Source: Paludibacter sp.
Lineage (GTDB): Bacteria > Bacteroidota > Bacteroidia > Bacteroidales > Paludibacteraceae
Length of the DNA stretch: 64,000 nucleotides
Direction: 5' to 3'
Assembly (NCBI GenBank): GCA_034928015.1
Contig: JAYFPF010000036.1
Location: forward strand, 15,669 to 79,668
How positions within the stretch are numbered: position 1 is the first letter of the stretch; each line of letters starts with the position of its first letter. A model generated the notes under the pieces. That model ran no database searches and was not told the DNA's origin. It saw only the letters and a program-made list of their open reading frames with translations. Positions 25,667-57,191 of the stretch are shown here, piece after piece. A program made the translations under genes and the position numbers.

Positions 25667-25751
25667 GTCTGCGGTCTATAGTATCCAGTCTACGGTCTTG
25701 TTGTGCAGTACAGATCTTATGACTATTGACTGCCGACAGTAGACTGTTGAC
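25667..25751. repeat. inverted pair of 7-nt periodic arrays between etfB and etfA
   Basis: gtctgcg-gtctata-gtatcca-gtctacg-gtcttgt, 19-nt spacer, then gactatt-gactgcc-gacagta-gactgtt-gac. Confidence 0.72.
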
Positions 25752-25755
25752 TTAA

Positions 25756-26628
25756 TTAACCGATTGTGTGGTTAGCAATTAGTTCTTTGATTAACTCTTC
25801 GATTTCACCATCAGCAGGCGTTAGGCGCTTGCTTTCTTTGGCGGTAAACACAACACTTTCGATTTGTTTAACTTTGGTGGGCGAACCGGAAAGTCCGAGC
25901 CACTGTGGTTCGTGTTCAATATCGGAAGCCCCCCATTCAGCAATGTTGAGGTAGGGATGTGTTTCATACAAATCAGTATAATCGGTAGAAGAAGCCTGAC
26001 GCTCACTAACCGTTTTGGCATTTTTGTATTTCAGGGTGAGTTTGGCGTGACGAGGACGACAATTGGCAGCAGAACCATTTACGGTAATAACTGTGGGCAG
26101 AGCGCCTTTAACTACCTCAACTCCTCTTTCCAGACGACGTTTAACGGTAATTTTTCCTTTCGACAAGTCAAGAATTTCTTCCGCGTAGGTAATTTGTGAG
26201 AGTCCCAGTTTCTCTGCAACCTGCGGACCAACCTGAGCGGTATCACCATCGATCGCCTGACGACCGCAAATGATTACGTCCACTTTGCCGATTTTACGAA
26301 TGGCGGCGGCAAGGGCATAAGAAGTAGCGAGGGTATCCGAACCGGCAAACTCACGTCCGCTCAACAGATAGCCTCCATCGGCTCCACGATACATACTTTC
26401 ACGGATGATTTCGGCAGCACGGGCGGGTCCCATTGTCAGTACATGAACCTGTGCGCCTTCAACTTTAGATTTTAAACGAAGTGCCTGTTCGAGTGCGTTG
26501 AGATCCTCCGGATTATAGATGGCAGGAAGCGCGGCGCGGTTAACCGTTCCGTCGGCTTTCATGGCATCTTTCCCAACATTACGCGTATCGGGCACTTGTT
26601 TTGCAAGCACAACAATATTAAAACTCAT
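25756..26628 (-). CDS. etfB: electron transfer flavoprotein beta subunit
   Basis: VLAKQVPDT, YNPEDLNALEQA, GSDTLATS, GRQAIDGDTAQVGP. Confidence 0.95.
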   Translation of the reverse strand: MSFNIVVLAKQVPDTRNVGKDAMKADGTVNRAALPAIYNPEDLNALEQALRLKSKVEGAQVHVLTMGPARAAEIIRESMYRGADGGYLLSGREFAGSDTLATSYALAAAIRKIGKVDVIICGRQAIDGDTAQVGPQVAEKLGLSQITYAEEILDLSKGKITVKRRLERGVEVVKGALPTVITVNGSAANCRPRHAKLTLKYKNAKTVSERQASSTDYTDLYETHPYLNIAEWGASDIEHEPQWLGLSGSPTKVKQIESVVFTAKESKRLTPADGEIEELIKELIANHTIG

Positions 26629-26731
26629 TTTGCGTATTATTATGGTTAATAAATAAATTTATTTCATTTCAATGAACAGGCTCCGATTTCGCTCAAAAGG
26701 AGAGTGTTTACCGGCTTATAAAAAACCCGTA

Positions 26732-26768
26732 CAAAAATAGCAGTTTTTGTTGAACATGCAACAAAAAC
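26732..26768 (-). promoter_or_regulatory. etfB operon promoter with overlapping palindromic candidate operator
   Basis: Minus-strand -7 box TATTTTTG (26732-26739); palindrome GTTTTTGTTG-AACATG-CAACAAAAAC (26743-26768). Confidence 0.55.
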
Positions 26769-26964
26769 CTGCACAAAATTTTAATAATGTGCAGAAAAAG
26801 GGTGCTGTTACCACCAGAACCGCCGCTTCAGAATAAAAGATGTTTGTGAAAAAGATAGTCCGGCGGAATTGCTTCTTCTTGTATATAATTATGTCGTTCC
26901 GAGCGAGCGCAGAGAGGAATCTGGAGTGCAGTTGCAGTGAGTGATTAATAATTTCTATCAGCAG

Positions 26965-27002
26965 AAAAACAACGCGGGACTTTTCACAAAGTCCCGCGTT
27001 GT
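26965..27002 (-). terminator. intrinsic terminator
   Basis: ACAACGCGGGACTTT-tcac-AAAGTCCCGCGTTGT; U-tract on the minus strand. Confidence 0.85.
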
Positions 27003-27054
27003 AAATAGGTATTAGTTTTTTTAAGGTATAAAAAAGATTGTGTTGTTTAGTTAA
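26965..27054 (-). ncRNA. candidate ~90-nt intergenic sRNA
   Basis: Minus-strand promoter TTTG (27089-27092)-N20-TTTCTTTG (27061-27068), an ATG-free body, then a perfect 15-bp terminator stem and U-tract. Confidence 0.5.
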
Positions 27055-27191
27055 CGCTTGCAAAGAAAAGCTGAATTTTGTTTCAAAACAAATGAAAAAA
27101 CATGTTTTACAACCTGTTTTTTGCGTTTTATGCTCAAAAACATACTTTTTTTGATAAAAAACACTAAATATATATTTTTATAAAAAAGCTG

Positions 27192-27199
27192 TATCTTTG
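27192..27199 (+). promoter_or_regulatory. -7 box upstream of the glutaminyl cyclase gene
   Basis: TATCTTTG, 20 nt before ATG 27220. Confidence 0.6.
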
Positions 27200-27219
27200 T
27201 TCGTCAAAATGAATATGCA

Positions 27220-28191
27220 ATGATAAGAAAAATTTATGTATTACTGATAATCGCGTCGTTTTTTTCTTGTAAACAACAGGCAAAGCCGCTTGCTTCAAAT
27301 GAAAATGCAGTTAATATCCCGGTCTTTTCTGCTGATTCGGCATATCAATATATACAAAAACAGGTTGATTTTGGTCCGAGAGTTCCAAATGCGCCTGCGC
27401 ACAAGGCGTGTGCAGGGTATTTGGCCGCATCGCTCCGCAGTTTTGGGGCGGAAGTAACAGAGCAAAAGATAAAACTGACTGCTTTCAACGGCGATGTGCT
27501 GGATGCTGTTAATATTATAGGATCTTTCAATCCCGGCTCCTCACAGCGGATTTTACTTTTTGCGCACTGGGATAGTCGACCTTGGTCGGATCATGACCCC
27601 GACCCGAAAAATTATACCAAACCTGTGTCGGGAGCTAATGATGGGGCAAGTGGAGTAGGCGTGTTACTTGAAATAGCCAGACAAATGGGTTTGCAATCGC
27701 CCCGTTTAGGTGTGGATATAATATTTTTCGATGCGGAAGATTACGGAGCTCCTGAAAATTACAGGGGTGATGCGGTCGATTCATGGTGTCTGGGTTCACA
27801 GTACTGGGCGAAAAATCCGCATGTACAAGGTTATCGGGCTAAATTTGGAATTTTACTGGATATGGTAGGTGCAAGAGATGCCAAGTTTTATCGGGAACAT
27901 ATTTCTGATTATTACGCACGCAATGTAGTGGATAAAATCTGGAATACAGCTGCAAATCTGGGCTTTGATAAGTATTTTATCAATAAGTCAGGAGGCTCTG
28001 TAACAGATGACCATTTGTATGTGAATCAGATTGCCGGAATTCCCAGCGCTAATATTATACAGTATGACCCACTGAGTGAAAAAGGTTTTGGTGATTACTG
28101 GCATACGGTAAACGACAATATGAGCAATATTGATAAGGAAACTTTGTTTGCCGTTGGTACAACTGTGCTGCATGTGGTTTATAATGAATGA
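27220..28191 (+). CDS. M28-family glutaminyl cyclase lipoprotein (Bacteroidetes Q-rule enzyme)
   Basis: Lipobox FFSC; FGPRVPN, AHWDSRP, GANDGASGVGVLLE, FFDAEDYG, LLDMVG, DDH, YWHT. Confidence 0.85.
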   Translation: MIRKIYVLLIIASFFSCKQQAKPLASNENAVNIPVFSADSAYQYIQKQVDFGPRVPNAPAHKACAGYLAASLRSFGAEVTEQKIKLTAFNGDVLDAVNIIGSFNPGSSQRILLFAHWDSRPWSDHDPDPKNYTKPVSGANDGASGVGVLLEIARQMGLQSPRLGVDIIFFDAEDYGAPENYRGDAVDSWCLGSQYWAKNPHVQGYRAKFGILLDMVGARDAKFYREHISDYYARNVVDKIWNTAANLGFDKYFINKSGGSVTDDHLYVNQIAGIPSANIIQYDPLSEKGFGDYWHTVNDNMSNIDKETLFAVGTTVLHVVYNE

Positions 28192-28200
28192 TAATTTTTA

Positions 28201-28506
28201 ACCATATAAGTCAATTAAGTTACATATAAGCTTTTTATATAAATTATCACTATTGTCCGGAAAAAAATATTAGATTCTTCGCTATGCTCAGAATGACAGT
28301 TCTTTATATTGATTTATGCAAGAGAGGGATTAGCTGGAGGCAAAGCTGTCAGCTAACCCTCTCTAAAAGATAAATTCTCGATTGTCATTTCGACCGAAGG
28401 GAGAAATCTATGTTGTAAAATATTTACCGGACAACAATGAAAAATTATAAGGTGATAAGCAAAAACGCAATAATAACTTATATGTAACTTAATTGACTTA
28501 TATGGT
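28201..28506. repeat. palindromic element with perfect 30-bp inverted arms, interrupted by a MITE
   Basis: ACCATATAAGTCAATTAAGTTACATATAAG (28201-28230) is the exact reverse complement of 28477-28506. Confidence 0.9.
28248..28439. mobile_element. 192-bp MITE with ends of the IS4 element at 46514-47946
   Basis: Right end TTTACCGGACAACAATG is identical to the IS4 IRR; left end CACTATTGTCCGGAAAA matches its reverse complement at 14/17. Flanks ATAAATTAT / AAAAATTAT form an 8/9 target duplication. Confidence 0.82.
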
Positions 28507-28516
28507 ATATTTAAAT

Positions 28517-29593
28517 ATGAAATACAAAAAGATAGCAGTAAAGATAGGAAGCAATGTCCTGACCAGACCGGATGGAACACTGGATATCACCCGGATGTCG
28601 GCGTTGGTGGATCAGGTGGCTGCATTGCACAAAAAGGGAGTTGAAATCGTGTTGGTTTCATCCGGTGCTGTAGCTTCGGGGAGGAGTATTATGGGAGTGT
28701 CGAAGAAAATGGACGTGGTAGATCAACGTCAGCTTTTTTCGGCAGTAGGTCAGGCTAAACTGATTAACCATTACTGGGATTTGTTTCGGGAGCATGGGAT
28801 TACGGTAGGGCAGGTACTCACCATGAAAGAGAATTTCAGCAGCCGCCGGCATTATCTCAATCAGCGGAATTGCATGCAGGTGATGCTTGATAACAAAGTT
28901 ATTCCCGTTGTAAATGAGAATGATACTGTCTCTGTTTCGGAGCTGATGTTTACTGATAACGACGAATTGTCCGGACTGATTGCCTCGATGATGGATATGG
29001 AAGCATTGATTATCCTGAGCAATATTGACGGTATTTTCAATGGATCACCCGATGATCCCAATTCAAAGGTGATACGGGAAATCAGAAAAGGCGAAGATGT
29101 GTCTGATTTTATTCAATCTTCGAAATCATCTTTCGGGAGAGGAGGTATGGCAACCAAGACATCTATAGCGCGTAAAATTGCTGATGAAGGAATAGAAGTC
29201 TACATTGCCAACGGAAAGAAGGAAAGTATACTGATTCGGTTGTTGGATAAAAAATCGGACGTGGTATGCACACATTTCGTAGCGTCCTCGGATACCGTAT
29301 CTTCTGTAAAGAAGTGGATAGCCCATAGTGAGGGTTTTGCCAAAGGTGAGATACATGTGAATGAAAATGCCGCGAAAGCGCTGACAGGAGAAAAAGCAGT
29401 CAGTTTGCTTCCCATTGGAGTTACGGCAATCTCAGGAGAATTTGAAAAAGATGATATAGTAAAAATTATAGATGAAAGCGGGAAATTTCTGGGTGTTGGT
29501 AAAGTCCAGTACGACAGCGAAAAAGCCCGCGAACTAATCGGGAAAAAAAATCAAAAACCGATAGTACATTGTGATTATCTATATTTAGAATAA
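28517..29593 (+). CDS. proB: glutamate 5-kinase
   Basis: IAVKIGSNVL, LVSSGAVA, SAVGQ, NENDTVS, FTDNDELS, GRGGMATK, C-terminal PUA domain. ATG 28517 preferred over TTG 28493, which lies inside the repeat. Confidence 0.95.
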   Translation: MKYKKIAVKIGSNVLTRPDGTLDITRMSALVDQVAALHKKGVEIVLVSSGAVASGRSIMGVSKKMDVVDQRQLFSAVGQAKLINHYWDLFREHGITVGQVLTMKENFSSRRHYLNQRNCMQVMLDNKVIPVVNENDTVSVSELMFTDNDELSGLIASMMDMEALIILSNIDGIFNGSPDDPNSKVIREIRKGEDVSDFIQSSKSSFGRGGMATKTSIARKIADEGIEVYIANGKKESILIRLLDKKSDVVCTHFVASSDTVSSVKKWIAHSEGFAKGEIHVNENAAKALTGEKAVSLLPIGVTAISGEFEKDDIVKIIDESGKFLGVGKVQYDSEKARELIGKKNQKPIVHCDYLYLE

Positions 29594-29596
29594 ACT

Positions 29597-29624
29597 AATA
29601 TGTTACTTATATGACTTATATGGT
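29597..29624. repeat. solo right arm of the ACCATATAAG element
   Basis: aatatgttacttatatgacttatatggt between proB and proA. Confidence 0.75.
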
Positions 29625-29638
29625 TTAAATAAAGTATT

Positions 29639-30871
29639 ATGAACTGGAAACAAAACTCCCTCAACGCTTCGCGTACATTAAATTTAGTAACTGACGACAC
29701 CATTAATCAGGTATTACTGGATCTGGCTGATGCTGCCGTTGCCAATACTGGTCGTATCCTGACTGAAAACGTAAAGGATTTAGCCATGATGGATAAATCG
29801 AACCCGATGTACGATCGTTTGTTGTTAAGCAAAGAACGCATCGAAGGTATTGCTGCCGATATTCGCAATGTGGCGAGTCTGCCTTCTCCGATCGGTAGGG
29901 TGAAAATGGAAACTGATCGTCCTAATGGAATGAGAATTACGAAAGTTAGTGTGCCTTTCGGGGTGATTGGAATTATATATGAAGCCCGTCCGAATGTCAG
30001 TTTTGATGTATTTTCGCTTTGTCTCAAATCCGGGAATGCCTGTGTGCTAAAGGGTGGAACAGATGCTTATAACTCAAACAGAGCTATTGTGGGTCTGATT
30101 CAGGAAGTGTTGGTGAAGCATGGCCTGGATAAAAATATCGTGACCCTGCTTCCTGCCGGAAGAGAAGCCACAGCCGAATTGATGAACGCAGTGGGTTATG
30201 TGGATTTGATTATTCCGCGGGGAGGAAAAGGACTGATTGAATTTGTGCGAGATAACTCCCGAATCCCTGTGATTGAAACAGGTGCAGGCATTTGTCATAC
30301 TTATTTTGATGAATTCGGGGATATGGAAAAAGGTAAATCTATCATTTTTAATGCTAAAACCCGCCGGGTAAGTGTTTGTAATGCATTGGACTGTTTGGTG
30401 ATACATACATCCAGACTGAAGGATCTACCAGCTTTATGTGCAAAATTAGCAGAAAAAAAGGTGATTATTTATGCAGATGAACCTTCTTATGCTGTTTTAA
30501 AAGATAATTATCCATTTTTAGAGCATGCTGTTGCGGAAAGTTTCGGAACCGAGTTTTTAGACTATAAAATGTCGATTAAAACCATTTCGTCCGTTACCGA
30601 AGCTGTTGACCACATTTCAGTTAACAGTTCCAAACATAGCGAATGTATCATCAGTGAAAACGAACGAAATATTCGGTATTTTGAAAAAATGGTCGATGCA
30701 GCCTGCGTTTACACCAATGTTTCGACTGCTTTTACCGATGGTGCACAGTTTGGTCTCGGTGCTGAAATCGGCATCAGCACACAGAAAATGCATGCACGTG
30801 GCCCCATGGCATTAGAAGAGCTTTGCTCCTATAAATGGATTATAAAAGGTGACGGGCAAACGCGTTCTTAA
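29639..30871 (+). CDS. proA: gamma-glutamyl phosphate reductase
   Basis: [61 protein letters not shown]. Confidence 0.96.
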
Positions 30872-30922
30872 ATCCTTAAATATAACATTCACAGCTTTGT
30901 AATTAAAATATTTTTCGATTTT

Positions 30923-30954
30923 TTTGCATATTCGAAAATATTTGTTTTCCTTTG
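30923..30954 (+). promoter_or_regulatory. promoter for the RRM gene, implying a ~130-nt 5' UTR
   Basis: TTTG (30923-30926)-N20-TTCCTTTG (30947-30954). Confidence 0.55.
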
Positions 30955-31090
30955 TCGCTGAGAATGATGCGTAATATATCGCAAGGTTATTTCCGACTCT
31001 TACCTAAGGGCAGGTTTTGTTTTAACCAGAACGTTTGTTTATGCTGTTCTTAAAAGGTTTATTTTATTCATTTTATTTTTTTATTTTTTT

Positions 31091-31333
31091 ATGAACATTT
31101 ATGTAGGTAACTTAAGTTACAGAGTCCGTGAAAATGACCTGCAAGGGGTTATGGCCGAATACGGTCAGGTACAATCATGCAAAATCATCAAAGACCGTGA
31201 AACAAACAAATCAAAAGGTTTTGCTTTCGTAGAAATGGATGATGCAGGTGGCGAAAAAGCTATTGCAGAACTGAACGGAGCTGACCTGGACGGTCGTACC
31301 ATGGTAGTTAAAGAAGCCAGACCAAAAGCTTAA
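31091..31333 (+). CDS. RRM (RNP-1) RNA-binding protein
   Basis: RNP2 IYVGNL, RNP1 KGFAFVEM, LNG...GRTMVVKEARP. Confidence 0.93.
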   Translation: MNIYVGNLSYRVRENDLQGVMAEYGQVQSCKIIKDRETNKSKGFAFVEMDDAGGEKAIAELNGADLDGRTMVVKEARPKA

Positions 31334-31355
31334 CAAACTTTCTGATTCAGGAATT

Positions 31356-31392
31356 AAACTTCTGTTGTCCCAGGTGATAGCAGGAGTTTTTT
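31356..31392 (+). terminator. intrinsic terminator after the RRM gene
   Basis: aaacttctgttgtc-ccaggt-gatagcaggagttt followed by a T-run. Confidence 0.7.
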
Positions 31393-31463
31393 AGTTTTAT
31401 ATATATCAGGGTTTATATCGATTAATTATTTAATCACATAAGTAACAATAGTTAACATGATTT

Positions 31464-32339
31464 ATGAAGATTAAAGGCATTTTCGGCCATTCCGGCTTAG
31501 GTTCGAGAGTTCTCCAACTGGTAGGAGTTTCGTTGTTTTTTATGTTGTTGTTTTCTCTGATTTCGCTTTGGATAACAAACGGAAATCTGTCGGACATCAG
31601 TTCAATTAAGCTGGCTCAGTTTATGCAGTCAATGGGTTTGTTTGTCATCCCGCCATTTTTATTGGCTTACTTGTGGAGTGAAAAACCGCTTGAGTATCTT
31701 CAGGTCGATCGTAAACCTTCATCAAAGGACGTACTGGTGGCTATAATCATCATGCTTTCTGCTGTGCCGGCTATTAACTTGCTGGGAGAAATAAACCACG
31801 CTATTCATTTTCCGGATTCTTTGTCATGGCTTGAAAATCAACTGGTTGATATGGAGGAAAAAGCGGAGGACCTTACACTCAGGATGCTGGATGTCGATAC
31901 CCTGACCGGTTTACTGATTAACCTTGGGCTGATAGCCATTATTCCCGCTGTCGGCGAAGAACTTTTTTTCAGGGGAATCCTGCAGCAAATATTGCAAAAC
32001 AAATTCAAAACTCATGCTGCGGTATGGATTACCGCCATCATTTTCAGTGCCATTCACTTTCAGTTTTTTGGCTTTATTCCCCGTATGTTGATGGGAGCCT
32101 TGCTTGGGTATATGTTCCTCTGGACAGGTAATATCTGGGTGCCGGTGGCAGCACATTTTACCAACAATGCTGCTGCGGTATTGTATTATTACTTCAAAGG
32201 TGATGGCGCTCAACAAGCCATGGACCTCGAAAATATCGGGAAGTCGGAAACGTATTTTGCCGGAATTATCAGTATGATGTTGGTTTCGTTGCTGATTTAT
32301 TATTTCAGAAAGCACACAAAACGCTCTTCTGCAGTTTAG
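31464..32339 (+). CDS. CPBP/Abi (CAAX-type) intramembrane metalloprotease
   Basis: PAVGEELFFRG, FSAIHF, AHFTNN; multiple transmembrane segments. Confidence 0.92.
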   Translation: MKIKGIFGHSGLGSRVLQLVGVSLFFMLLFSLISLWITNGNLSDISSIKLAQFMQSMGLFVIPPFLLAYLWSEKPLEYLQVDRKPSSKDVLVAIIIMLSAVPAINLLGEINHAIHFPDSLSWLENQLVDMEEKAEDLTLRMLDVDTLTGLLINLGLIAIIPAVGEELFFRGILQQILQNKFKTHAAVWITAIIFSAIHFQFFGFIPRMLMGALLGYMFLWTGNIWVPVAAHFTNNAAAVLYYYFKGDGAQQAMDLENIGKSETYFAGIISMMLVSLLIYYFRKHTKRSSAV

Positions 32340-32342
32340 CGA

Positions 32343-32741
32343 TCAGACTTTAACTGTTCTTCTTTCCCTGACAATCATCAACGCTTCTTCTTTGATGTCT
32401 TCGGGAAGTTCTATTTTCCGGAGCTGCAAACTGCGCAGCCATCCGGCAACATCACTTTCTTTCAGGGTGTAAAAAACATCTGCAAGCTGATTCTTTTGAT
32501 TGTCCGTAAAAGAGGATGGGCTTACTCCGGATAGTTCATCCAGTTCCTCATCATCATAATACACGATGTCGCAATCCGGATTTAAAAGAGAGTCTTTATC
32601 GCATACCTCATGTGCGCCGCAACATTCTTCATCCATTTCGAATTTTATCTCAACCTCCTCTGTTTTCTTTTTCCGGTTAAGATAGGTGAACAGCATTAAC
32701 AGCCCTGCTCCGGCAACTAAAACTATGATAAGTACCCACAT
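32343..32741 (-). CDS. conserved Bacteroidales hypothetical membrane protein
   Basis: N-terminal TM helix, ECCGAHEVC, YYDDEELD, WLRSLQLR. Confidence 0.75.
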   Translation of the reverse strand: MWVLIIVLVAGAGLLMLFTYLNRKKKTEEVEIKFEMDEECCGAHEVCDKDSLLNPDCDIVYYDDEELDELSGVSPSSFTDNQKNQLADVFYTLKESDVAGWLRSLQLRKIELPEDIKEEALMIVRERRTVKV

Positions 32742-32756
32742 TTTTATAGATTCTTA

Positions 32757-32867
32757 AACCACAAAAGGAAATTCAAGAAGCAAATAACGAATAGTGAAAA
32801 TGTAAGTTAGCATAACATTTCCTTACAATCATTAATTTAAAATTTTTCTTTTGTGCCTTTTGTGGTT
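32757..32867. repeat. short inverted repeat pair (repeat-element remnant)
   Basis: AACCACAAAAGG (32757-32768) / CCTTTTGTGGTT (32856-32867). Confidence 0.5.
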
Positions 32868-32887
32868 ATATTAAATTAAATTCACCG

Positions 32888-32925
32888 CAAAATTACGCAA
32901 TTGTAGTTGAAATTAGCTATTTTTG
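32888..32925. promoter_or_regulatory. back-to-back -7 boxes of divergent promoters
   Basis: CAAAATTA (minus-strand TAATTTTG, 32888-32895) and TATTTTTG (32918-32925). The ORF-track TTG start at 32923 lies in the box, so it is probably not the real start. Confidence 0.6.
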
Positions 32926-33012
32926 TACGTTAAAAATACAATAGAAAAGCTATTTTTCAGTTTTAGAAGCATGTTAAACCAGGTTCCTGAAATTGGTAAA
33001 ATCAACTCAATT

Positions 33013-37349: not shown

Positions 37350-37357
37350 AGACAAAT

Positions 37358-37446
37358 GTCAAATTAAAGTCTAAAGTTTAAAGTTTAACGACAGTATTTA
37401 TCATTTATAACATCTGAAATCATACATTTGACTATAGACTTTAGAC
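37358..37446. repeat. inverted 7-nt periodic arrays between porX and argF'
   Basis: gtctaaa-gtttaaa-gtttaac ... atttgac-tatagac-tttagac. Confidence 0.65.
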
Positions 37447-37458
37447 CCCAAGTAGAAT

Positions 37459-38438: not shown

Positions 38439-38537
38439 ACCATATAAGTCATATAAGCGACATATAAGTTGTATTTACTTTATTACAATTTACAATTTTA
38501 TTAAGAGCTTATATGTCGCTTATATGACTTATATGGT
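38439..38537. repeat. intact ACCATATAAG palindromic element
   Basis: Perfect 30-bp arms ACCATATAAGTCATATAAGCGACATATAAG (38439-38468) and its reverse complement (38508-38537), 39-bp spacer. Confidence 0.92.
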
Positions 38538-38551: not shown

Positions 38552-39076
38552 ATGAATATAGAAAAAGTTATTGCATCTATCAGAAATGTACCCGACTTCC
38601 CCAAACCGGGAATTTTATTTAAAGATATTACCACAGCAATGAAAGATCCGGAGGTTCTGCGTTTCATAGTGGATGAATTGTACGAGTACTACAAGGATAA
38701 AGGGATCACGAAGGTTGTAGGCGTGGAAAGCCGTGGTTTTGTGCTGGGAAGTATTCTGGCTTACAAGCTCGGTGCCGGTTTTGTGTTGTTGCGTAAGCCA
38801 GGAAAATTACCTGCCGATACATATAGATTGGCTTATGATCTGGAATACGGTCAGGATGCACTGGAAATTCACAAAGATGCGATTGAGCCAGGTGATGTTG
38901 TGTTATTGCATGACGATTTGCTGGCAACCGGCGGTAGTGCCGGAGCGGCATTAAAATTACTTGCCAATTTTGATATGAAAGCAGTTTATGTAAGTTTTCT
39001 GATCGAACTTGAATTCCTGAAGGGAAAAGAAAAACTCGAAAATGCTACGGACATTCATTCAATGATTCAATTCTGA
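38552..39076 (+). CDS. apt: adenine phosphoribosyltransferase
   Basis: VPDFPKPGILFKDIT, GVESRGF, LRKPGKLP, YDLEYG, DDLLATGG. Confidence 0.95.
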   Translation: MNIEKVIASIRNVPDFPKPGILFKDITTAMKDPEVLRFIVDELYEYYKDKGITKVVGVESRGFVLGSILAYKLGAGFVLLRKPGKLPADTYRLAYDLEYGQDALEIHKDAIEPGDVVLLHDDLLATGGSAGAALKLLANFDMKAVYVSFLIELEFLKGKEKLENATDIHSMIQF

Positions 39077-44858: not shown

Positions 44859-44860
44859 AA

Positions 44861-46485: not shown

Positions 46486-46513
46486 TGCAGAAACAGTTTT
46501 ATGTATATTTTTT

Positions 46514-48903: not shown

Positions 48904-48930
48904 AGTATTATTTACGTTTCAAGAATGACA

Positions 48931-50019
48931 CTAATGTTTAAATTGTATAAATAGCTCAAAGTACTTCTCAGACATTTTCTGTAGGGAAAAGTCTTTTCTT
49001 ACAATTTCACTTGCGTTATTACCAAGCCTTTCTCTGACATTCGTATTACTTAATAATTCAATAATTCTTGTTTTAAGTTGATCCACATTCTTATGCTCTA
49101 CAAGAAATCCGGTCTCAAGATCATTAACAATCTCAGGCGTCCCTCCTGTGTTCGTAGCAATAACAGGTTTAGCAAGTGCCATAGATTCTAATATAAAGTT
49201 TGATATTCCTTCTGACTCACTACATAACACACAAATATCAGACATCAGAATTATTTCTTCAACATTCTGTTTACAACCAATAAACTTAATAAATTGAGAA
49301 TCTTCAATTGACAATTGTGATTTATAGTAACTAATCATTGGGCCATCTCCAACGGCTAAAAATGTCACATCCTGCCTTTCTTTTAACACAAGTTTGGCAG
49401 CGTCAACAAAGGTTTGATAGTCTTTTGCTAGAGTAACTCTAGCTACCATAGTTATTATGAATCTTGTTTCAATGCCCATATCAGATTTGATAATTTCTTT
49501 TGCTCTCAGATTATGTAATCTATTAAAATCAAATCCATTATATATCAAGATAGATTTATCCTTAGGAATTCTATATGCTTCAAGTCCAACATTGGAATTA
49601 CCAATAATATAACTTGATGTAGTAAAGGACATTAATCTTGCTATATTCCCAATCGAAAAGAACTTTGGTCTATTTGTATTTGCAACATAGGCACTAAGGT
49701 AATTAAATTTCACAAACATTCTAATGAAATTCAGCCAAAAACTACTCATTAAAGACCAAGACAAGACTATATCAGGCTTAGTTTCTACCAATATTCTCAA
49801 CAGGCGCGTGAATACTTTAAAATCTTTGCGGTGCTTTCTATTTAGTTTGTGAAGAGTTATTTCTAAGTTAAAAAACTCAGGATATTCAATAATATCCTCA
49901 AAAATAACTACATGTATATTAAATTCGGCTAAAGAACCAAGACCTTTTATCAACTGAAGACATCTCCTCTCTTTTCCTCCTATCCCTAAAGAATCAATTA
50001 CAAATAACAGTTTCATCAA
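48931..50019 (-). CDS. GT4 glycosyltransferase
   Basis: GGKERR, IYNGFD, SEGISNFILESMALAKPVIATNTGGTPE. Confidence 0.9.
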   Translation of the reverse strand: MMKLLFVIDSLGIGGKERRCLQLIKGLGSLAEFNIHVVIFEDIIEYPEFFNLEITLHKLNRKHRKDFKVFTRLLRILVETKPDIVLSWSLMSSFWLNFIRMFVKFNYLSAYVANTNRPKFFSIGNIARLMSFTTSSYIIGNSNVGLEAYRIPKDKSILIYNGFDFNRLHNLRAKEIIKSDMGIETRFIITMVARVTLAKDYQTFVDAAKLVLKERQDVTFLAVGDGPMISYYKSQLSIEDSQFIKFIGCKQNVEEIILMSDICVLCSESEGISNFILESMALAKPVIATNTGGTPEIVNDLETGFLVEHKNVDQLKTRIIELLSNTNVRERLGNNASEIVRKDFSLQKMSEKYFELFIQFKH

Positions 50020-50051
50020 AATCTACTAATTTAACTAATCACACATCTGCT

Positions 50052-51308
50052 CTACTCTATTCTCTTAAGTTTACTTTTCGTCCTTACACCCTGAATATAA
50101 AAAAACGGGAGCAAATAAAAAGTGAAAAATATTGGTGATATAACGATTGAAAATCCAATAGATATTGAGACAATAATCATTAACCAGACTATAGACGTTT
50201 TCGTAAATTTGTATCTGTTTTTAAAAAAGAGCGAGGACTTCCTTACTCCTATAAACCATAAAATAAATCCAAAAAGGCCATATTGAGCTAACAAATTTCC
50301 AACCCCTGACACTGGACGAATATCTGCTCCAAACTGATTCGTCCATCTCAAATCAGCATTTGCGCCATAACCCAGCAAAGGTCTTTTAATAAAGTCCATA
50401 TATGTGATCTTAAACGATGCAAAACGTCCTGGTGCGTATGAACCGCGAGACTGAATTGACAGGTCAACAAGTTCATCAATTTCATCAGATTGATTTATGT
50501 CCTCAATTATTTTAGTTCTGAGAAAACTAACATTTATAAATAAAAATACAACCAACGCTACAAAAAAAGGAAGCGTTATCAATAAAGCTTTCTTTGCAAT
50601 TGGATTATTCAACATTATCCATACTAATACAAAGAAAAAAGCTATAACAGCAGTTGTTGATTGTGTAGAAATTAGACCCAGTAATAAAACAAAAAAGACA
50701 TAATTATTTCTTAACCTAAACTGCGTCCGTAACATGTTAAAAAATATTGCTACGACAATAAATGATCCAAAAGGTCCTGGCTCCCATGTAAAACCGCAAT
50801 TTCTTGGAATACCCCAAGAATCCATATGATTTACACTATAAATACCAATACTATATCTAATTCGGCTTCCCACATTTATGTCATTGTATTTATTTATATT
50901 AAATATATCCATAAAACGATAAAATGAGCTTACATCAAATATATGCCATAACATAAAGATAAAACTAATCAATGTTAAGTAATATATAATTTTCTCATAC
51001 TTAATAAAGATATCAATTCCATAAATTTTAATTGCTACATAAGCAGCAAAAAACATGATGGGGTAATAGAAAAATAATGATGGGTAAAACGAGGATATAG
51101 CTATAGTGTTTAAAAAGGCATATACAATCCAAATAAAAACTAAAGTAAAAAATGTTTTTGAGATATAAACTTTGTAAACACGAAAGTAAATTAAAGAAAT
51201 TATTAACACAAGAATCGAAGAATCTGAATTTCTAAAGGCAAAGATACCTAAACCAGAAAAGATTATTAAAAAGAAGATGTAGAAATTCTTTACGTAATTT
51301 TTCATCAA
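50052..51308 (-). CDS. wzy: Wzy-like polysaccharide polymerase
   Basis: Multiple TM segments; RNCGFTWEPG, STQSTTA, RFAS...PLLGYG. Confidence 0.7.
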   Translation of the reverse strand: MMKNYVKNFYIFFLIIFSGLGIFAFRNSDSSILVLIISLIYFRVYKVYISKTFFTLVFIWIVYAFLNTIAISSFYPSLFFYYPIMFFAAYVAIKIYGIDIFIKYEKIIYYLTLISFIFMLWHIFDVSSFYRFMDIFNINKYNDINVGSRIRYSIGIYSVNHMDSWGIPRNCGFTWEPGPFGSFIVVAIFFNMLRTQFRLRNNYVFFVLLLGLISTQSTTAVIAFFFVLVWIMLNNPIAKKALLITLPFFVALVVFLFINVSFLRTKIIEDINQSDEIDELVDLSIQSRGSYAPGRFASFKITYMDFIKRPLLGYGANADLRWTNQFGADIRPVSGVGNLLAQYGLFGFILWFIGVRKSSLFFKNRYKFTKTSIVWLMIIVSISIGFSIVISPIFFTFYLLPFFYIQGVRTKSKLKRIE

Positions 51309-51314
51309 TTGATT

Positions 51315-52559
51315 TCAATTAACTAAATCATTTAGTCTTTGTTTATTTATATATTTTATGTAACAAATATACATATAGCCAAAATAGGTTACTGATGTTA
51401 TTATCTTTGTCCCAATTGCACCATAGATACCCCATAAATATACTAAAACAACATTTCCTATCACTAATACTCCACCTGAAACAAAGGCACTATTTCTTAG
51501 CATTTTACCCTGCCCTTTTGCAGCAAGAAATCTGTTAATCATATCACCAAATCCGTGAAAAGCCATTCCTATAGCCAGAACTGAGGCATACTTTGCAACA
51601 ACAAAATATTCTCTGCTATATAAAATACTTACCAATGGTTCGATTAAAACAATAAAAGCGAAAAGGCTTATCAAGGTCATAACGAATGTCCCATAAAAAA
51701 TTTTTTTATCAATTTTTTTATCTAAAGCAAATCTTTTATAATAGGTCGTCCCTATAATAGTTGGGAGAATTGCCAATGGCATTGAGATGGTCAGTGCTAA
51801 TGTATAAAACCCGACGAGTGTATTATCTGTGTTAAAAAGTCCCAAGGTTATTCCTGCAAGATAATTTAAAGATACACCAGCTAAAGATCCCAAATAAACA
51901 TGTAAACCATATTTTTTATTCTCTCTTTTCAAATCGCCATATGACTCTTTCAGATTTGAAAACATAGGCTTACTAAGTGCTATAATTATTCCCAGCATAA
52001 TTAGACTTATACCATTCTGAAGCATAATTACTCTTTCTGATGTCGCCCCAAAGTATCGATATATATAATATCCTATAATTAAATAGACAAGTGATGGAAG
52101 TAATCTTGCCATTGATATGCTGAATATCTTATTGTCTCCCTGAGCTGTGGTGTTAATATAATTTAGCAACAATGGAGATGCACTTACAAATGCTCCCAAA
52201 ACAAACAGATTAGATATTTCACTCTTCAAAAAACTTTTATGTATTAAAGACGAGAATTGCATGAAAAGGAACATCAACAGAATAGACACGATCAAAATCA
52301 GTATCATGACTCCTTTATATTTTGCTGTTTTTTGCGGGCTATCTGACACTGCCATCAACCTACAACCAGAAACAAAAAATCCAAATGTAAGCAAGCCGGA
52401 AAGAAATAACATAATATTACTTACGTATTTCACATCTCCATAATCTGAAGGCGATAAGCTTCGGGTATTCAATACTGAGACCAAAATACCTAAGACAAGC
52501 CCTATTACAGTAGAACTATATAGTAATAAAACCTGTTTATGTTGTTTATCAACTCTCAT
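51315..52559 (-). CDS. wzx: Wzx-like flippase
   Basis: About 12 TM segments; TRSLSPSDYG, VGFYTLAL, WGIYGA. Confidence 0.8.
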   Translation of the reverse strand: MRVDKQHKQVLLLYSSTVIGLVLGILVSVLNTRSLSPSDYGDVKYVSNIMLFLSGLLTFGFFVSGCRLMAVSDSPQKTAKYKGVMILILIVSILLMFLFMQFSSLIHKSFLKSEISNLFVLGAFVSASPLLLNYINTTAQGDNKIFSISMARLLPSLVYLIIGYYIYRYFGATSERVIMLQNGISLIMLGIIIALSKPMFSNLKESYGDLKRENKKYGLHVYLGSLAGVSLNYLAGITLGLFNTDNTLVGFYTLALTISMPLAILPTIIGTTYYKRFALDKKIDKKIFYGTFVMTLISLFAFIVLIEPLVSILYSREYFVVAKYASVLAIGMAFHGFGDMINRFLAAKGQGKMLRNSAFVSGGVLVIGNVVLVYLWGIYGAIGTKIITSVTYFGYMYICYIKYINKQRLNDLVN

Positions 52560-52701
52560 TTAATATGTAAAATATCTTCACTATGTGTCACTTTCAAATC
52601 TGCTTTTATCTAAATAAACAAAATCCAAATTGTTTTTTTGTGACCATTCAAGTAATTTCAGGGCAAATCATTGATTCTCTTGAACATGGTCATTGACTCT
52701 C

Positions 52702-53901
52702 TTATTGAAGAAAATGATTTAATTTGTCCGAATAATTTAAGTAATTAAAATGTTCAACTGCTGTTTGATATGCGTTTTCAGAAATTTTCCTATAATGATC
52801 TTCGCTTTGATTAATGATAAATAGTAATTTGTTAAAAAAATCATCACTTGTATATCCATCAACCATATAGCAATTGTAATTATCCTTGAAATAATCACCC
52901 ACAACTCCTGTATTTGTCATCAAAATAGGAGTTCCTGAAACGGCATACTCCGCAAGTTTTGTTGAAAAACCATAATAATTCTGAAGGGTGTTTTTTCGGG
53001 GTAGTACCAACAAAGTTGCTTTGCGCTGTAGTTCTACAACTTCTTTATTTGTCAATTCACCCAAATAAGTGACACGTAAGTTTAAATTATTTTCATTTAT
53101 AAATTCTTCAACAATCAACTTATCATACAATTCTACTTTACCACACAAAATAAACTCCCAATCAAGTTTCGTTTCTGTATTCAATCTTTGTAAAGCTCTT
53201 AAAAAAACATCGATATTTTCTTTTCTAACACTAATATATCCAGAATATAGAATTGTAAATTTGCTGTTGTGTTTAGGGGTGAAAGTAAAAGTCTTATTTA
53301 CTTCAGATAAGATGGGAATGACTATAATATTGTTATTTATTTTCTTCACATACGTGGCAATATTTTGTGATATACAAATTAAACCCTGTGAATAGGCCCA
53401 AATACTTTCATATACATGGATTTTTATTTTAATGTAATGATGTAAAATAAATCCCTTTATTGATACAATCGGTTTATCCAAGAGATACCTTCTTATTTCA
53501 TTTACTTCAAAAAACAATTTGTTATATCTCTTAATTTTCAGAAGCAAAAAAACAATGAAAGTAAAGCTTAAACTAAGAGAAGGATATATAAGGAATACTT
53601 TATATGCATTATGACTTGTGATTGTTTTTTCGAATTGTATTGCAAACTTTATATTCCCAATAATCCTTTTAACATTACCTTTATATCCTTTTGAATTTAC
53701 CTCATTAGCATGAGTATAGATGTTTTTTTCAACTTCTACAAATTCTTTTCTTATATGGTAATTCTGAACTGAAACCAAATACACCCTAACATCATCACCC
53801 CCACTAACCAATGCTTTTGAGTAAAGATTCATTCTACTTACAGCAGCAGTATTACCGTACCAAAGATTGTGATCAGATATAATATAAAGATTTCTTTGCA
53901 T
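52702..53901 (-). CDS. GT4 glycosyltransferase
   Basis: ILYSGY...KENID, YLG, GFSTKLAEYAVSGTPIL. Confidence 0.85.
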   Translation of the reverse strand: MQRNLYIISDHNLWYGNTAAVSRMNLYSKALVSGGDDVRVYLVSVQNYHIRKEFVEVEKNIYTHANEVNSKGYKGNVKRIIGNIKFAIQFEKTITSHNAYKVFLIYPSLSLSFTFIVFLLLKIKRYNKLFFEVNEIRRYLLDKPIVSIKGFILHHYIKIKIHVYESIWAYSQGLICISQNIATYVKKINNNIIVIPILSEVNKTFTFTPKHNSKFTILYSGYISVRKENIDVFLRALQRLNTETKLDWEFILCGKVELYDKLIVEEFINENNLNLRVTYLGELTNKEVVELQRKATLLVLPRKNTLQNYYGFSTKLAEYAVSGTPILMTNTGVVGDYFKDNYNCYMVDGYTSDDFFNKLLFIINQSEDHYRKISENAYQTAVEHFNYLNYSDKLNHFLQ

Positions 53902-53921
53902 GAACTTTTAAATAGAAGTCA

Positions 53922-55190
53922 TCACAACCTTCCATCAATCAAACCTAAACTCAGCATCCCCTTCACATCAAACACCACCTTTTCCCCATTTATCACCGGA
54001 CTTAAATCAAGCTGTTTAAACTCATCATGTGCCACTGCCAGCACCACCCCATCAAATTTCTTCCCGGGTAATTCATTCAACACCTTCACACCATACTCAT
54101 GCATCACTTCATCAGGATTTGCCCAGGGATCATAGATGGTTACCTGCACATCATAGTCCTGCAACTCTTTCACGATATCGATTACCTTGGTGTTGCGCAC
54201 ATCCGGACAGTTTTCCTTGAACGTAAATCCGAGGACAAGTACTTCGGAATCGAGTACCTGAATGCCTTTTTTCAACATCAGTTTAACAACCTGGTTCGCG
54301 ACATAAGCTCCCATGCCATCATTCATCCGGCGGCCGGCCAGGATGATTTCGGGGTTGTAGCCATAACGCTGAGCTGCCTGCGCCAAATAATAAGGGTCAA
54401 CACCAATGCAATGTCCACCTACCAGCCCGGGTTTAAATGGCAGGAAATTCCATTTGGTTCCGGCTGCTGCCAGTACATCCTGGGTATCGATACCCATTTT
54501 ATTGAATATTTTGGATAATTCGTTTACGAAAGCAATGTTGATATCGCGCTGCGCATTCTCGATAACCTTTGCAGCTTCAGCCACTTTCATGGTTGGAGCT
54601 AAATGGGTACCCGCGGTAATTACAGAAGCATAAACTTCATTCACTTTTTGAGCAACTTCAGGCGTAGAACCGGAAGTAACTTTCTTTATTTTCTCAACGG
54701 TATGCAGTTTGTCGCCGGGGTTAATACGCTCCGGGCTATAGCCAGCAAAGAAATCCACATTAAATTTCAATCCGGATATTTTTTCCACCACAGGCAGACA
54801 TTCATCTTCTGTAACACCCGGGTAAACGGTAGATTCATATACCACAACATCACCTTTCCCGATAACCTTTCCAACCGTCTCACTGGCTTTGTATAAAGGG
54901 GTCAGATCCGGATTGTTATTTTTATCCACCGGAGTAGGTACTGTGACCACATAAAAATTGCAGTCGCGTATCTTTTCCAATTCACTGGTACAAATAAAGC
55001 CATTCCGGATGGCTTCCTGTAACAATGTATCTTCTACTTCCAGTGTGGCATCACGCCCCGACATCAATTCGTCCACACGTTTCTGGTTTATATCGAAACC
55101 AATAGTTTTGTATTTTGTTGAAAATAAACGGGCTAAAGGTAATCCTACATAACCTAAGCCGATAACGGCAATTTTTGTTTCGTTTTGCAT
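53922..55190 (-). CDS. UDP-N-acetylhexosamine 6-dehydrogenase (TviB/WbpO-like)
   Basis: IAVIGLGYVGLPLA, VVYESTVYPG, SPERINPGD, GLVGGHCIGVDPYYL, GFTFKENCPD. Confidence 0.92.
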   Translation of the reverse strand: MQNETKIAVIGLGYVGLPLARLFSTKYKTIGFDINQKRVDELMSGRDATLEVEDTLLQEAIRNGFICTSELEKIRDCNFYVVTVPTPVDKNNNPDLTPLYKASETVGKVIGKGDVVVYESTVYPGVTEDECLPVVEKISGLKFNVDFFAGYSPERINPGDKLHTVEKIKKVTSGSTPEVAQKVNEVYASVITAGTHLAPTMKVAEAAKVIENAQRDINIAFVNELSKIFNKMGIDTQDVLAAAGTKWNFLPFKPGLVGGHCIGVDPYYLAQAAQRYGYNPEIILAGRRMNDGMGAYVANQVVKLMLKKGIQVLDSEVLVLGFTFKENCPDVRNTKVIDIVKELQDYDVQVTIYDPWANPDEVMHEYGVKVLNELPGKKFDGVVLAVAHDEFKQLDLSPVINGEKVVFDVKGMLSLGLIDGRL

Positions 55191-55240
55191 TTTATATTAT
55201 GTCTAAAGTCTAAAGTCGTTTGGTATAATTTTTATAATGT

Positions 55241-55257
55241 GTCGTCCCTACGAGACT
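55241..55257. repeat. short REP-like palindrome
   Basis: GTCGTCCCTACGAGACT (AGTCTCGTAGGGACGAC on the minus strand). Confidence 0.45.
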
Positions 55258-55282
55258 ATTTACATGATTAATCATTTCAGTT

Positions 55283-56030
55283 TCATTTTATCAGCCAATA
55301 ACCACCAGTTTTGAATGCTCCCTTAAATACTATTTTCTGTTCATCTCTCAAATATTTCAGCCATCTTTCTACGGTTCTTTGAGATACATTTAATTTTTCT
55401 CTCAATTCTGCAGACTTAATGCCCGGGTAATCTTCTACAAGCTTCAATAAGGTGTTTACTCCGACATTTACTCCGACATTTACTCCGACATTTTCAGTAA
55501 CATGATCAGTTGGTTTGGTTGAAATCTTTTGTTTTTCATATTGAAGTTCTACAAGAAAGCCACTCCCTACTTCTTTGTATTTCATTGTCATTGTGGGATA
55601 TGACAGAATTTCCTTTCTTATTCGGATATAACCACTGCCGTACTTTTCAATGTCTTTGGTAAGATAAAAAGCCTCTGCAATTAATTTGTTTCGCATATGC
55701 GATTGATATGTATCAGTACTAAGCTCTTCAATGGTAAGATTGCCAAAAAGTTTACCAGGGTTGAAAAAACTGATACTTTGATCAAATATCTTTATTTGAA
55801 TATCAACAGGACTTGTATAATCCCGGTGAATGATGGCACATAGTTTCCTGCCCAACTGTTACACCGACAAATTTACCGTTGTCGTCAATGCCAATAAATA
55901 CAGAACCTCCTGAAGTGTTTGAAAACGCAACAACAGTTTCGATGGCTTCGTCATTGAAACTAAGTTTAAACTCAATTGTATCCGATTCTCCGGCTTGAAT
56001 GAGTTTTTGTATGTTTGTTCCGCTTCCCAT
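55283..56030 (-). pseudogene. AlbA_2/Schlafen + HATPase-like + HTH protein with internal deletion and frameshift
   Basis: N-terminal frame GESDTIEFK...VAFSNTSGG...IGIDD joins the C-terminal frame AIIHRDY...RNKLIA...EKYGSG near 55841. A 12-bp unit TTTACTCCGACA x3 (55455-55490) lies in the C-terminal part. Confidence 0.8.
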
Positions 56031-56040
56031 TTTCGGTTCT

Positions 56041-57015
56041 TTACAGATTTTCCCAGTACCACTTCACGGCTTCTTTCAATCCATCACGCAATGAATATAG
56101 GGGATGATAACCCAGTAATTCCTTTGCTTTGTCGATTGAGGCTAGTGAATGAGGAATGTCACCGATCCGGTTTGGACCATGTTTTATTTCAATACTATTG
56201 ATTTCCGGATCAAATTCCGATAAAAACTCTTTCAGATAACCTGTTAGTTGAATCAGGGTGTTTCGTTCTCCATAAGCCGTATTATAAACTGTGTTTACCG
56301 CCTCAGGATTAGTGGTGGAGATAGCTAATAGATTCATCTGAATCACGTTGTCAACATAGGTAAAGTCACGGGAGTATTCACCATCACCATTGATTACCGG
56401 AGACTCATGTTGCATCAGTTTCTTCACGAAGAGAGGAATTACAGCAGCATAAGCGCCATGCGGATCCTGTCTGCGTCCGAACACATTAAAATAACGTAAA
56501 CCTATGCATTCCATTCCGTAGGTTTTGGAAAAAACATCCGCGTATAATTCATTTACATACTTGGTGATGGCATAAGGAGAAAGAGGTTTCCCAATCACAT
56601 CTTCCACTTTCGGTAAAGATGCTGAGTCGCCATAAGTTGAAGAACTGGCGGCATAAATGAAACGTTTTACACCTGCATCGCGTGCAGCTACCAACATATT
56701 AAGGAAACCCGACACATTCACCTCGTTGGAGGTAATGGGGTCATTAATGGAACGAGGAACAGAACCTAAAGCTGCTTCATGCAACACGTAATCAATACCA
56801 TCGACCGCTTTACGGCAAGTTTCCATATCTCTGATGTCACCTTCTATCAGGCTAAAATTATCATTTAATAGAAATTTATCTATGTTTTTGCGGTGCCCCG
56901 TTGAAAAATTATCAAGGCAAACTACTTTATGCCCCAGATTCAACAAGGTTTCACACAAATTTGAACCTATAAAACCGGCTCCTCCTGTTACAAGTATATT
57001 AAAATTCTTTATCAT
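56041..57015 (-). CDS. UDP-HexNAc(A) 4-epimerase (WbpP/TviC-like SDR)
   Basis: LVTGGAGFIGSNL, HEAALGSVPRS, AASSSTYG, SPYAITK, LRYFNVFG. Confidence 0.92.
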   Translation of the reverse strand: MIKNFNILVTGGAGFIGSNLCETLLNLGHKVVCLDNFSTGHRKNIDKFLLNDNFSLIEGDIRDMETCRKAVDGIDYVLHEAALGSVPRSINDPITSNEVNVSGFLNMLVAARDAGVKRFIYAASSSTYGDSASLPKVEDVIGKPLSPYAITKYVNELYADVFSKTYGMECIGLRYFNVFGRRQDPHGAYAAVIPLFVKKLMQHESPVINGDGEYSRDFTYVDNVIQMNLLAISTTNPEAVNTVYNTAYGERNTLIQLTGYLKEFLSEFDPEINSIEIKHGPNRIGDIPHSLASIDKAKELLGYHPLYSLRDGLKEAVKWYWENL

Positions 57016-57191
57016 TTTATAATTGTCTAACGACGAATGTCTAACGTCCTTTTTTTGTTATTTTATTACGCCCTTGGGGGGCTGACTGGTGACCGGCGAC
57101 TGGTGACATTTTCCACGGCAAAGCCCCGCCAGTCCCGTCTCGAACCAACTAATCCACTCATATACAACAACTCTCCTTTAATTCAGGAGAG

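Follow-up and report, generated by a model that had tools for sequence, protein, structure and literature searches.

Heptanucleotide-repeat hairpin modules at gene junctions of a Paludibacter genome and their possible kinship with four-helix-bundle gene cassettes

A stretch of 64,000 nucleotides (nt) from a Paludibacter genome (the window, C84:15669-79668) contains, in the spacers between its protein-coding genes, arrays of 7-nt units built on GTC or GAC that end shortly before start codons. The assembly measures 3.42 Mb in 98 contigs at 40% GC; G-numbers stand for genomes, with G000 the one studied, and L-numbers for loci or sequences of relatives. In the etfB-etfA spacer, the sense strand leads from the stop codon TAA through ttaa into a 5′ arm of five GTCnnnn units (GTCAACA GTCTACT GTCGGCA GTCAATA GTC, plus-strand 25721-25751), a loop, and a 3′ arm of five GACnnnn units (GACCGTA GACTGGA TACTATA GACCGCA GACATC, plus-strand 25664-25700), after which comes an A8 leader; the sequence from the 3′ arm to the ATG of etfA reads ATCAAAAAAAA, and this ATG lies 11 nt past the last GAC of the array. 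RNA folding of the module gives a hairpin of -24.3 kcal/mol (z = -3.25) with the final 24 nt unpaired. In the PglZ-argF′ spacer, a degenerate GTCTAAA/GTTTAAA array serves as the 5′ arm (37358-37393) and is followed by a loop and by the 3′ arm GACTATA GACTTTA GAC (37430-37446), so that the array end reads GACTATAGACTTTAGAC and the 12-nt leader CCCAAGTAGAAT separates it from the ATG. This module folds at -18.2 kcal/mol (z = -2.94), and in both of these long modules the leader end stays free, with 12-24 nt unpaired.

The arrays upstream of ugd, a UDP-glucose dehydrogenase gene, and of an epimerase gene are short. The first (GACTTTAGACTTTAGAC) is joined to its ATG by the 10-nt leader ATAATATAAA and the second (GACGTTAGACATTCGTCGTTAGAC) by the 9-nt leader AATTATAAA, and RNA folding finds no significant hairpin in either (z = -0.13 and -1.19, respectively). 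Pfam confirms the gene identities named next to the arrays of the window. A sequence-only reading of this DNA had placed GTC/GAC arrays 11, 12, 10, and 9 nt before the starts of etfA, argF′, the dehydrogenase gene, and the epimerase gene, had seen further arrays abutting the stops of a susD-like gene and of acd, and had taken the two longest arrays for inverted pairs. All of these coordinates and spacings hold, the stop-side arrays are present as described, and the two inverted pairs are the significant hairpins given above. Table 1 also lists arrays that were absent from that reading, among them one in the UpxY-epimerase gap whose pairing partner is a degenerate segment (GACGGGA CTGGCGG) upstream of it, and one near the end of the window that has degenerate GTC/GAC units (63820-63890) upstream.

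Table 1. Repeat arrays and modules of the window, with positions counted from its first nucleotide
Feature	Position	Strand	Layout on the sense strand	Basis or remark
TAG-type array at susD-like stop	2014..2046	+	TAGAGCG AATAGCT AATAACG AATAACT AATAG	begins right at the stop
TAG/AGC-type array at acd stop	22880..22927	-	AGCGGCG AGCGAAA AACTAAA AGCGAAT AGCTAAA GAC	begins right after the stop codon
etfB-etfA spacer module, whole	25656..25755	-		sequence read and RNA fold
PglZ-argF′ spacer module, whole	37350..37458	+		sequence read and RNA fold
Longer-period module	38439..38537	+	CATATAAG arm (period 10-11), loop, CTTATATG arm, 14-nt A-rich leader, ATG at 38552	same architecture as the heptamer modules
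ugd array, solitary	55191..55217	-	GACTTTA GACTTTA GAC	sequence read, Pfam for the gene
Epimerase array	57016..57048	-	GACGTTA GACATTC GTCGTTA GAC	sequence read, Pfam for the gene
Second array of the UpxY-epimerase gap	57085..57108	-	GTCACCA GTCGCCG GTCACCA GTC	GC-rich unit type; absent from the sequence-only reading
Start-side array	63911..63942	+	(TACATTT) GACATTT GACATAA, A-rich leader, ATG at 63943/63950	absent from the sequence-only reading

That the period is kept while the sequence is not, as had been claimed for the window, applies to the genome at large. Counted genome-wide, GTC and GAC recur at least four times at an exact lag of 7 nt in 28 and 29 places, compared with 0-1 at the other lags between 4 and 12; lowering the minimum to three recurrences gives 53 and 48 places, and no other lag exceeds 11. 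A periodicity scan of the whole genome had been proposed as a check; carried out by autocorrelation without any anchor motif, it returned 132 regions at lag 7 and 1-7 at each of the other lags from 4 to 13, with a harmonic at lag 14. A looser threshold yields 217 arrays, 198 of which lie between genes; by a crude gene caller, coding sequence makes up 89% of the genome. The 7-nt period is far beyond chance. Unit sequence is conserved neither inside one array nor across arrays, and the unit families listed genome-wide include AGTGGTT, CGCTATT, CCGCTTT, GACTGTA, GACTTTA, and GACATTA. The last three belong, with others, to a GTC/GAC superfamily of about 55 arrays, and the further families of free arrays are GGTTAGT (50 arrays), GCGAATA (20), and GCGGAAA (18).

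These arrays obey a polar grammar with respect to genes. Co-directional gaps hold about 85% of them, compared with a baseline of 75%, and divergent promoter gaps hold 4% compared with 14%. Solitary (GACnnnn)n arrays lie in the sense orientation 27 times and antisense 6 times; inverted pairs are ordered GTC...GAC in at least 8 cases and reversed in 1, and TAG-type pairs are ordered GGTTAGT...ACTAACC in 12 cases with about 0 reversed. A compound order recurs in which a stop codon is followed by a TAG-type array, a GAC-type array, a leader, and ATG. The enrichment before start codons suspected from the window is borne out: in the 53 gaps between co-directional genes that contain a sense GAC array, the array is nearer the start in 42 and nearer the stop in 10 (binomial p = 9e-6), and it ends 8-18 nt upstream of the ATG in 28 of the 53 and less than 8 nt upstream in none. 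The spacer between array and ATG is 70% A, compared with 45% in the 12 nt upstream of all genes, and usually reads GAC-A(A)TAAA.... On the other side, TAG-type arrays start at distances of -3 to 15 nt relative to the preceding stop codon and often furnish that codon themselves. The module brings its own ends, a 5′ TAG-bearing array often with a stop codon and a 3′ (GACnnTA)n array that runs into an A-rich tail of 8-18 nt. The array behind a LacI-family gene (G000 C60:64720-64812) has overwritten the native stop and lengthened the reading frame by 7 codons (…TTKQLTTNN*), with the new TAA lying within a TAACTAA unit.

Comparison with relatives reveals how quickly these spacers turn over. The etfB-etfA gap, compared across 32 relatives, is only 4-13 nt long in nine of them (e.g., TAA-TTTAAC-ATG), while others carry differing inserts of 70-165 nt with inverted arms, built on GTC/GAC heptamers (L004, L006), on a period-8 unit TGCCAATN (L009, L022), on GTTTGAA (L010), or as a GGGGG-ended palindrome (L008, L013, L021). 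DNA identity to L004 reaches 96.8% over 2.9 kb, and the EtfA proteins are 100% identical, yet the L004 array differs in units and length; the indels relative to the window array measure 6+3 and 1 nt, from which no strain variation in 7-nt steps is claimed. At PglZ-argF′, where 20 relatives and two metagenome contigs were compared, six congeners have a gap of 24-32 nt, and other lineage-specific arrays fill it elsewhere. One metagenome contig, 83% identical to the window, has kept a 3′ arm and a leader that are homologous at this junction (GACTTTAGACCCAAAATAGAAT-ATG), while its 5′ part has turned over. No array was found upstream of ugd in any of 17 congeners, where the context of the gene is not syntenic. 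Because orthologous gaps are short or hold unrelated repeat inserts, the modules are lineage-specific and evolve faster than their flanks. They are replacements of whole stop-to-start spacers that measure 3-32 nt in relatives, and they can persist for some time.

The sequence-only reading had also mentioned genes for four-helix-bundle (4HB) proteins of the TIGR02436 type (PF05635) flanked by such arrays, and this proved correct. G000 contains just two 4HB genes, one at C94:27805-28150 and one split over the ends of contigs C15 and C47, and both are bracketed by GGTTAGT and GCGGAAA/GCGAATA arrays, the three most abundant families of free arrays in this genome. The sequences C15:25314-25523 and C47:1-219 overlap inside the one gene, which makes C15 and C47 neighbors; the assembly appears to break at cassettes flanked by arrays. 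In relatives, 4HB genes are present in 36 of 40 genomes at 1-14 copies each, and in about 20 of 24 inspected loci the gene sits between complementary tandem-repeat arms. The upstream array starts from the preceding stop codon and the downstream array consists of reverse-complement units that end shortly before the next ATG. Arm units vary by cassette (AGAGCCA, GTGACAA, CAGTTGT, CGGGTTT, GTTCCGT, and, at period 8-9, GAAGATTT and GGAAGTTAA), and the arms still match one another: a cassette's own 3′ flank is the best partner of its 5′ flank in 10 of 21 cases and among the top three in 16 of 21. Paired cassette arms thus remain complementary while the unit sequence shifts. The units of free arrays agree with those of cassettes in the same genome as well, with 13 of 28 in G010 matching that genome's own 4HB arms and at most 2 of 28 matching foreign arms. 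A congener, G005, contributes a 4HB pseudogene with an internal stop between GTCTAAA/TTTAGAC arms, with a leader and ATG coming after the 3′ arm just as in the window modules.

Cassettes also occupy the kind of junction that concerns us here. They had been suggested to target inter-cistronic gaps, and in two congeners (L099, L105) a 4HB cassette does lie in the etfA-acd gap, which adjoins the etfB-etfA module of the window. The junction between a LacI-family gene and a major facilitator superfamily (MFS) transporter gene provides the broadest comparison across the genus, with a 4HB cassette in seven genomes, a 3-18-nt gap and no insert in four, and arrays only in two (G000, where the array is the one that overwrote the LacI stop, and G002). 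A further LacI-MFS gap, that of L204 (G014), is 496 nt long with no 4HB gene detected. The seven cassettes encode proteins that are 60-83% identical and carry different arm units, and each arm pair is still complementary. In G001 and G006, the MFS genes are almost identical, and yet the 4HB proteins are 62% identical and the arms differ, which shows that cassettes have been exchanged at a fixed site.

Taken together, these results favor the view that the arrays of the window belong to a class of hairpin elements with heptamer arms. They would be its cargo-less form, the cargo-bearing one having a PF05635/TIGR02436 4HB gene between its arms; we assign this reading a probability of roughly 0.55. 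Paludibacter and many other Bacteroidales have the cargo-bearing form, and the arrays come as full arm-loop-arm hairpins, as compound arrays, and as single arms. Inverted arms that fill the stop-to-start spacer, as in the cassettes of relatives, are found at etfB-etfA and PglZ-argF′ but not at the two short arrays. The unit families of free arrays match 4HB arms of the same genome or of congeners, with GGTTAGT, GCGGAAA, and GCGAATA represented in the resident 4HB arms and GTCTAAA/TTTAGAC in G005. As a mechanism, units would be gained and lost by replication slippage, arms may be kept alike by hairpin or template-switch repair at the DNA level, and modules could spread between junctions in trans via the 4HB protein or by recombination. 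Their persistence at operon junctions would come from tolerance, with sense-strand stops ending stray translation and the A-rich leader left unstructured. Bacteroidota need an unstructured A-rich leader for initiation independent of Shine-Dalgarno sequences, and the constant distance of 9-12 nt to the start may accordingly reflect this leader constraint and not a dedicated regulatory role.

A number of results weigh against this reading. No 4HB open reading frame (ORF) or remnant is present in any gap of the window, and no cargo gene occupies the orthologous gaps at etfB-etfA (32 relatives), PglZ-argF′ (20), or ugd (17). Most arrays are solitary and unpaired. The arrays of G000 number about 217 and its 4HB genes only two, both of them without GTC/GAC arms. 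In 100-kb samples from each of 11 relatives, which are small and give an indication only, the density of lag-7 arrays does not vary with the number of 4HB genes: G000 has 6.3 arrays per 100 kb with two 4HB genes, G010 has 11 with four, and G005 has 3 with 14, while none were counted in G002 and G006 (nine and eight 4HB genes) or in G026 and G030 (no 4HB genes). In the MFS tree, the neighbors of G000 have short empty LacI-MFS gaps, which favors independent gain of the array over a scar. A selfish palindrome acting at the DNA level alone would not be expected to give solitary arrays their strong polarity with respect to genes, stops in all three frames of the sense strand are weakly enriched (76 of 146 arrays versus 57 of 146, p = 0.03), and a search for a mobilizing enzyme, a target-site duplication, or a conserved loop found none. 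For the original proposal that the arrays are scars of such a cassette the picture is mixed: the decaying 4HB copy between GTC/GAC arms in G005 agrees with it, but a scar origin of the window arrays themselves is not supported, given the missing cargo at their orthologous gaps, the decoupled density, and the LacI-MFS history.

Several of these points would suit plain slippage repeats, neutral in tolerated DNA and of the long simple sequence repeat (LSSR) or short tandemly repeated repetitive (STRR) type, with 4HB genes landing or staying in palindromic arrays that already existed. The decoupling of density from copy number, the preponderance of solitary arrays, loops that differ between copies, and the LacI-MFS arrays that look independently gained all speak for this account, as does the lack of a G:U bias in the stems described below. 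Heptanucleotides are, moreover, the commonest long simple repeats in many bacteria, according to Mrazek 2007 as cited in PMC4679880. Nevertheless, gaps of 4-13 nt such as TTTAAC cannot give rise to a two-armed module of 100 nt through slippage alone, and the same unit families are found at dozens of loci and agree with 4HB cassette arms. A modular unit is suggested by the fixed order and polarity (TAG at stops, GAC at starts, GTC before GAC) and by the GAC-A(A)TAAA tail that the arrays have in common. For these reasons we regard slippage by itself as an unlikely explanation.

Somewhat more doubtful still is the proposal that the arrays are functional cis-elements of the mRNA, either sites near the start for a regulator or ribosomal protein S1, or RNase III or stability hairpins that uncouple cistrons. 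Such a role would agree with the tight anchoring of the arrays near the start in a fixed sense orientation, with the absence of arrays closer than 8 nt, and with the A-rich tail, and the two long arrays fold significantly with the leader free. TAACTGA repeats behave likewise in Beggiatoaceae and Flexibacter litoralis (PMC4679880), and the homologous stem of a 23S rRNA intervening sequence (IVS) is cut by RNase III in Coxiella (PMC4990558). On the other hand, the same junctions work in close relatives with gaps of 4-13 nt or with unrelated inserts, the unit sequence is unconserved, and the downstream genes (etfA, argF′, ugd, the epimerase gene, an MFS transporter gene) share no common theme. 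Rfam 15 gives 0 matches in the whole window. Stem mismatches were also counted as G:U or A:C on the sense strand; the counts are 79 versus 103 in cassettes and 24 versus 31 in empty pairs, a weak negative from a crude alignment. The lack of a sense-strand G:U excess argues against selection on an RNA stem, and it is in line with arms made complementary by a process acting on DNA. Many paired arms meet at a TTAATTAA centre. Two narrower candidates were set aside. An intrinsic terminator was rejected since no terminator-like site was found at the arrays, whose hairpins run into A-rich tails and not into a U-tract, and a three-frame stop insulator as the main principle was rejected because the enrichment of such stops is weak.

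Movement by a transposase encoded elsewhere, as for repetitive extragenic palindromic (REP) elements, their hairpin-forming doublets (REPINs), or miniature inverted-repeat transposable elements (MITEs), is very improbable: the arrays are dispersed, intergenic, and often palindromic, and the genome has two Y1_Tnp genes akin to REP-associated tyrosine transposases (RAYTs), but both genes are flanked by inverted repeats of their own, and the arrays share neither a consensus along their whole length nor a conserved core framed by terminal inverted repeats, their loops vary, and target duplications are not visible. Copy-and-paste of the MITE kind was rejected after an all-against-all BLAST of array-bearing gaps returned only unit identity (77-83%) and unique loops, and a RAYT/REP identity of the heptamer arrays was rejected on the basis of those different flanking repeats. 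The Y1_Tnp genes (C70:600-1440 and C51:14500-15000) each have REP-like inverted repeats, one of the form aaccttatt...ctaaacaaccttagtag and the other cttctcactgaagtt...aatcaagttg, with copies at C84:80574-80924, just beyond the end of the window. These repeat systems are of the REP/RAYT type and separate from the heptamer arrays. We know of no catalytic activity of the 4HB protein, in which it differs from RAYT. REP/REPIN-RAYT systems (PMC3116915) nonetheless share with the arrays short, dispersed, intergenic palindromes and possibly a single-copy protein gene that lies between such repeats, and they differ in that the heptamer arrays are without a fixed REP consensus.

Heptanucleotide repeats themselves have a long history. 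Cyanobacterial STRR heptanucleotide repeats were reportedly described by Mazel in 1990, and to our knowledge neither a polar grammar of stops and starts nor an A-rich tail has been described for STRRs. The STRR or heptanucleotide LSSR arrays (Mrazek 2007, as cited in PMC4679880) resemble those of Paludibacter in being dispersed and intergenic, in having several unit families per genome, and in blooming in particular lineages; phylum and units differ. The closest described phenomenon is the TAACTGA family (MacGregor 2015, PMC4679880), whose heptamers lie mostly forward and just upstream of starts in Beggiatoaceae, cyanobacteria, and five Bacteroidetes including Paludibacter propionicigenes, and whose function is unknown, with binding of S1 or a translational regulator upstream of the start having been proposed. 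Like the Paludibacter arrays, they form tandem repeats of 7 nt in many intergenic regions, at distances of a few to about 40 nt before starts, and the TAACTGA repeats are mixed with other heptamer families and vary between strains in steps of one unit. The arrays in G000 agree with this class in their 7-nt unit, in their dispersed and intergenic placement, and in their forward orientation just upstream of starts. The TAACTGA unit itself was not found, a TAACTAA variant being seen once. The units here are GACnnTA/GTCTAnn, GGTTAGT, GCGAATA, and GCGGAAA, many form inverted pairs, and stop-proximal and start-proximal families are separate; no link to PF05635 is described in the TAACTGA paper (PMC4679880).

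The 4HB family has a known setting of its own. In Coxiella burnetii, the 23S rRNA IVS encodes the S23p protein and is excised by RNase III (PMC4990558), and ORF-bearing IVSs of this kind, known from Leptospira as well, place a PF05635 ORF inside a long stem of complementary flanks in a transcribed region, with a cargo ORF that is prone to decay as it is in the cargo-bearing relatives here. The elements in Paludibacter differ from them in that they lie in mRNA spacers between protein-coding genes rather than in rRNA helix 45, their arms are tandem repeats of 7-9 nt, and those of the window are without an ORF. Our literature search, which left subscription journals mostly outside its scope, found no paper that mentions TIGR02436 or reports a connection between PF05635 genes and arms of tandem repeats.

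Catalogues of intergenic heptamer repeats (STRR, TAACTGA, LSSR) go back more than 30 years, yet no origin or function has been accepted for them, and the widespread PF05635 "IVS protein" family is equally unexplained. The present genome ties the two together within one genus through shared units, cassette swaps at fixed junctions, and a decaying cassette with GTC/GAC arms, even as free arrays bloom independently of 4HB gene copy number under a strict stop-side and start-side grammar. What is new here is this polar grammar, the statistics of the A-rich tail, cassette exchange at a fixed junction, and two negatives, for proportionality to copy number and for G:U bias. By analogy with RAYT and REP, PF05635 proteins and heptamer hairpins could form one self-propagating system in which a few protein-coding master copies maintain, copy, or exchange many noncoding arm modules in trans; the modules would then be portable inter-cistronic junctions composed of a multi-frame stop, a hairpin, and an A-rich leader, and the 23S rRNA IVS, cyanobacterial STRRs, and TAACTGA repeats might be special cases. 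We offer this generalization tentatively and consider it rather unlikely. On a practical level, the arrays break assemblies, vary between strains, and could be typing markers. Bacteroidota do not use Shine-Dalgarno sequences, and the arrays may influence expression of the downstream cistron in this phylum.

Not all inserts of this kind are heptameric. Besides the module at 38439-38537, which the sequence-only reading did not include, the window has single CATATAAG-type arms of period 9-11 at 29605-29622 and 28477-28506 that were likewise absent from it. Arrays of this CATATAAG/CTTATATG family stop 10-16 nt upstream of the gene starts at 38552, 29639, and 28502, and the pair formed by 28201-28230 and 28477-28506 encloses an insert of 246 nt. 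Units of the family adjoin GTC arrays elsewhere in the genome (C56, C78, C89). In the G010 sample (L181-L185), blooms of period 9 (16 per 100 kb) and period 11 (13 per 100 kb) occur besides those of period 7, and therefore the array machinery is not strictly bound to 7 nt. A palindromic insert ended by G/C runs (AGCCCCCTAAATCCCC...GGGGGCT) occupies the same junctions as the heptamer modules, namely etfB-etfA in L008, L013, and L021 and PglZ-argF′ in L119, L125, and L257, and a agccccccaaggg segment in the UpxY-epimerase gap of the window (57049-57075) resembles it.

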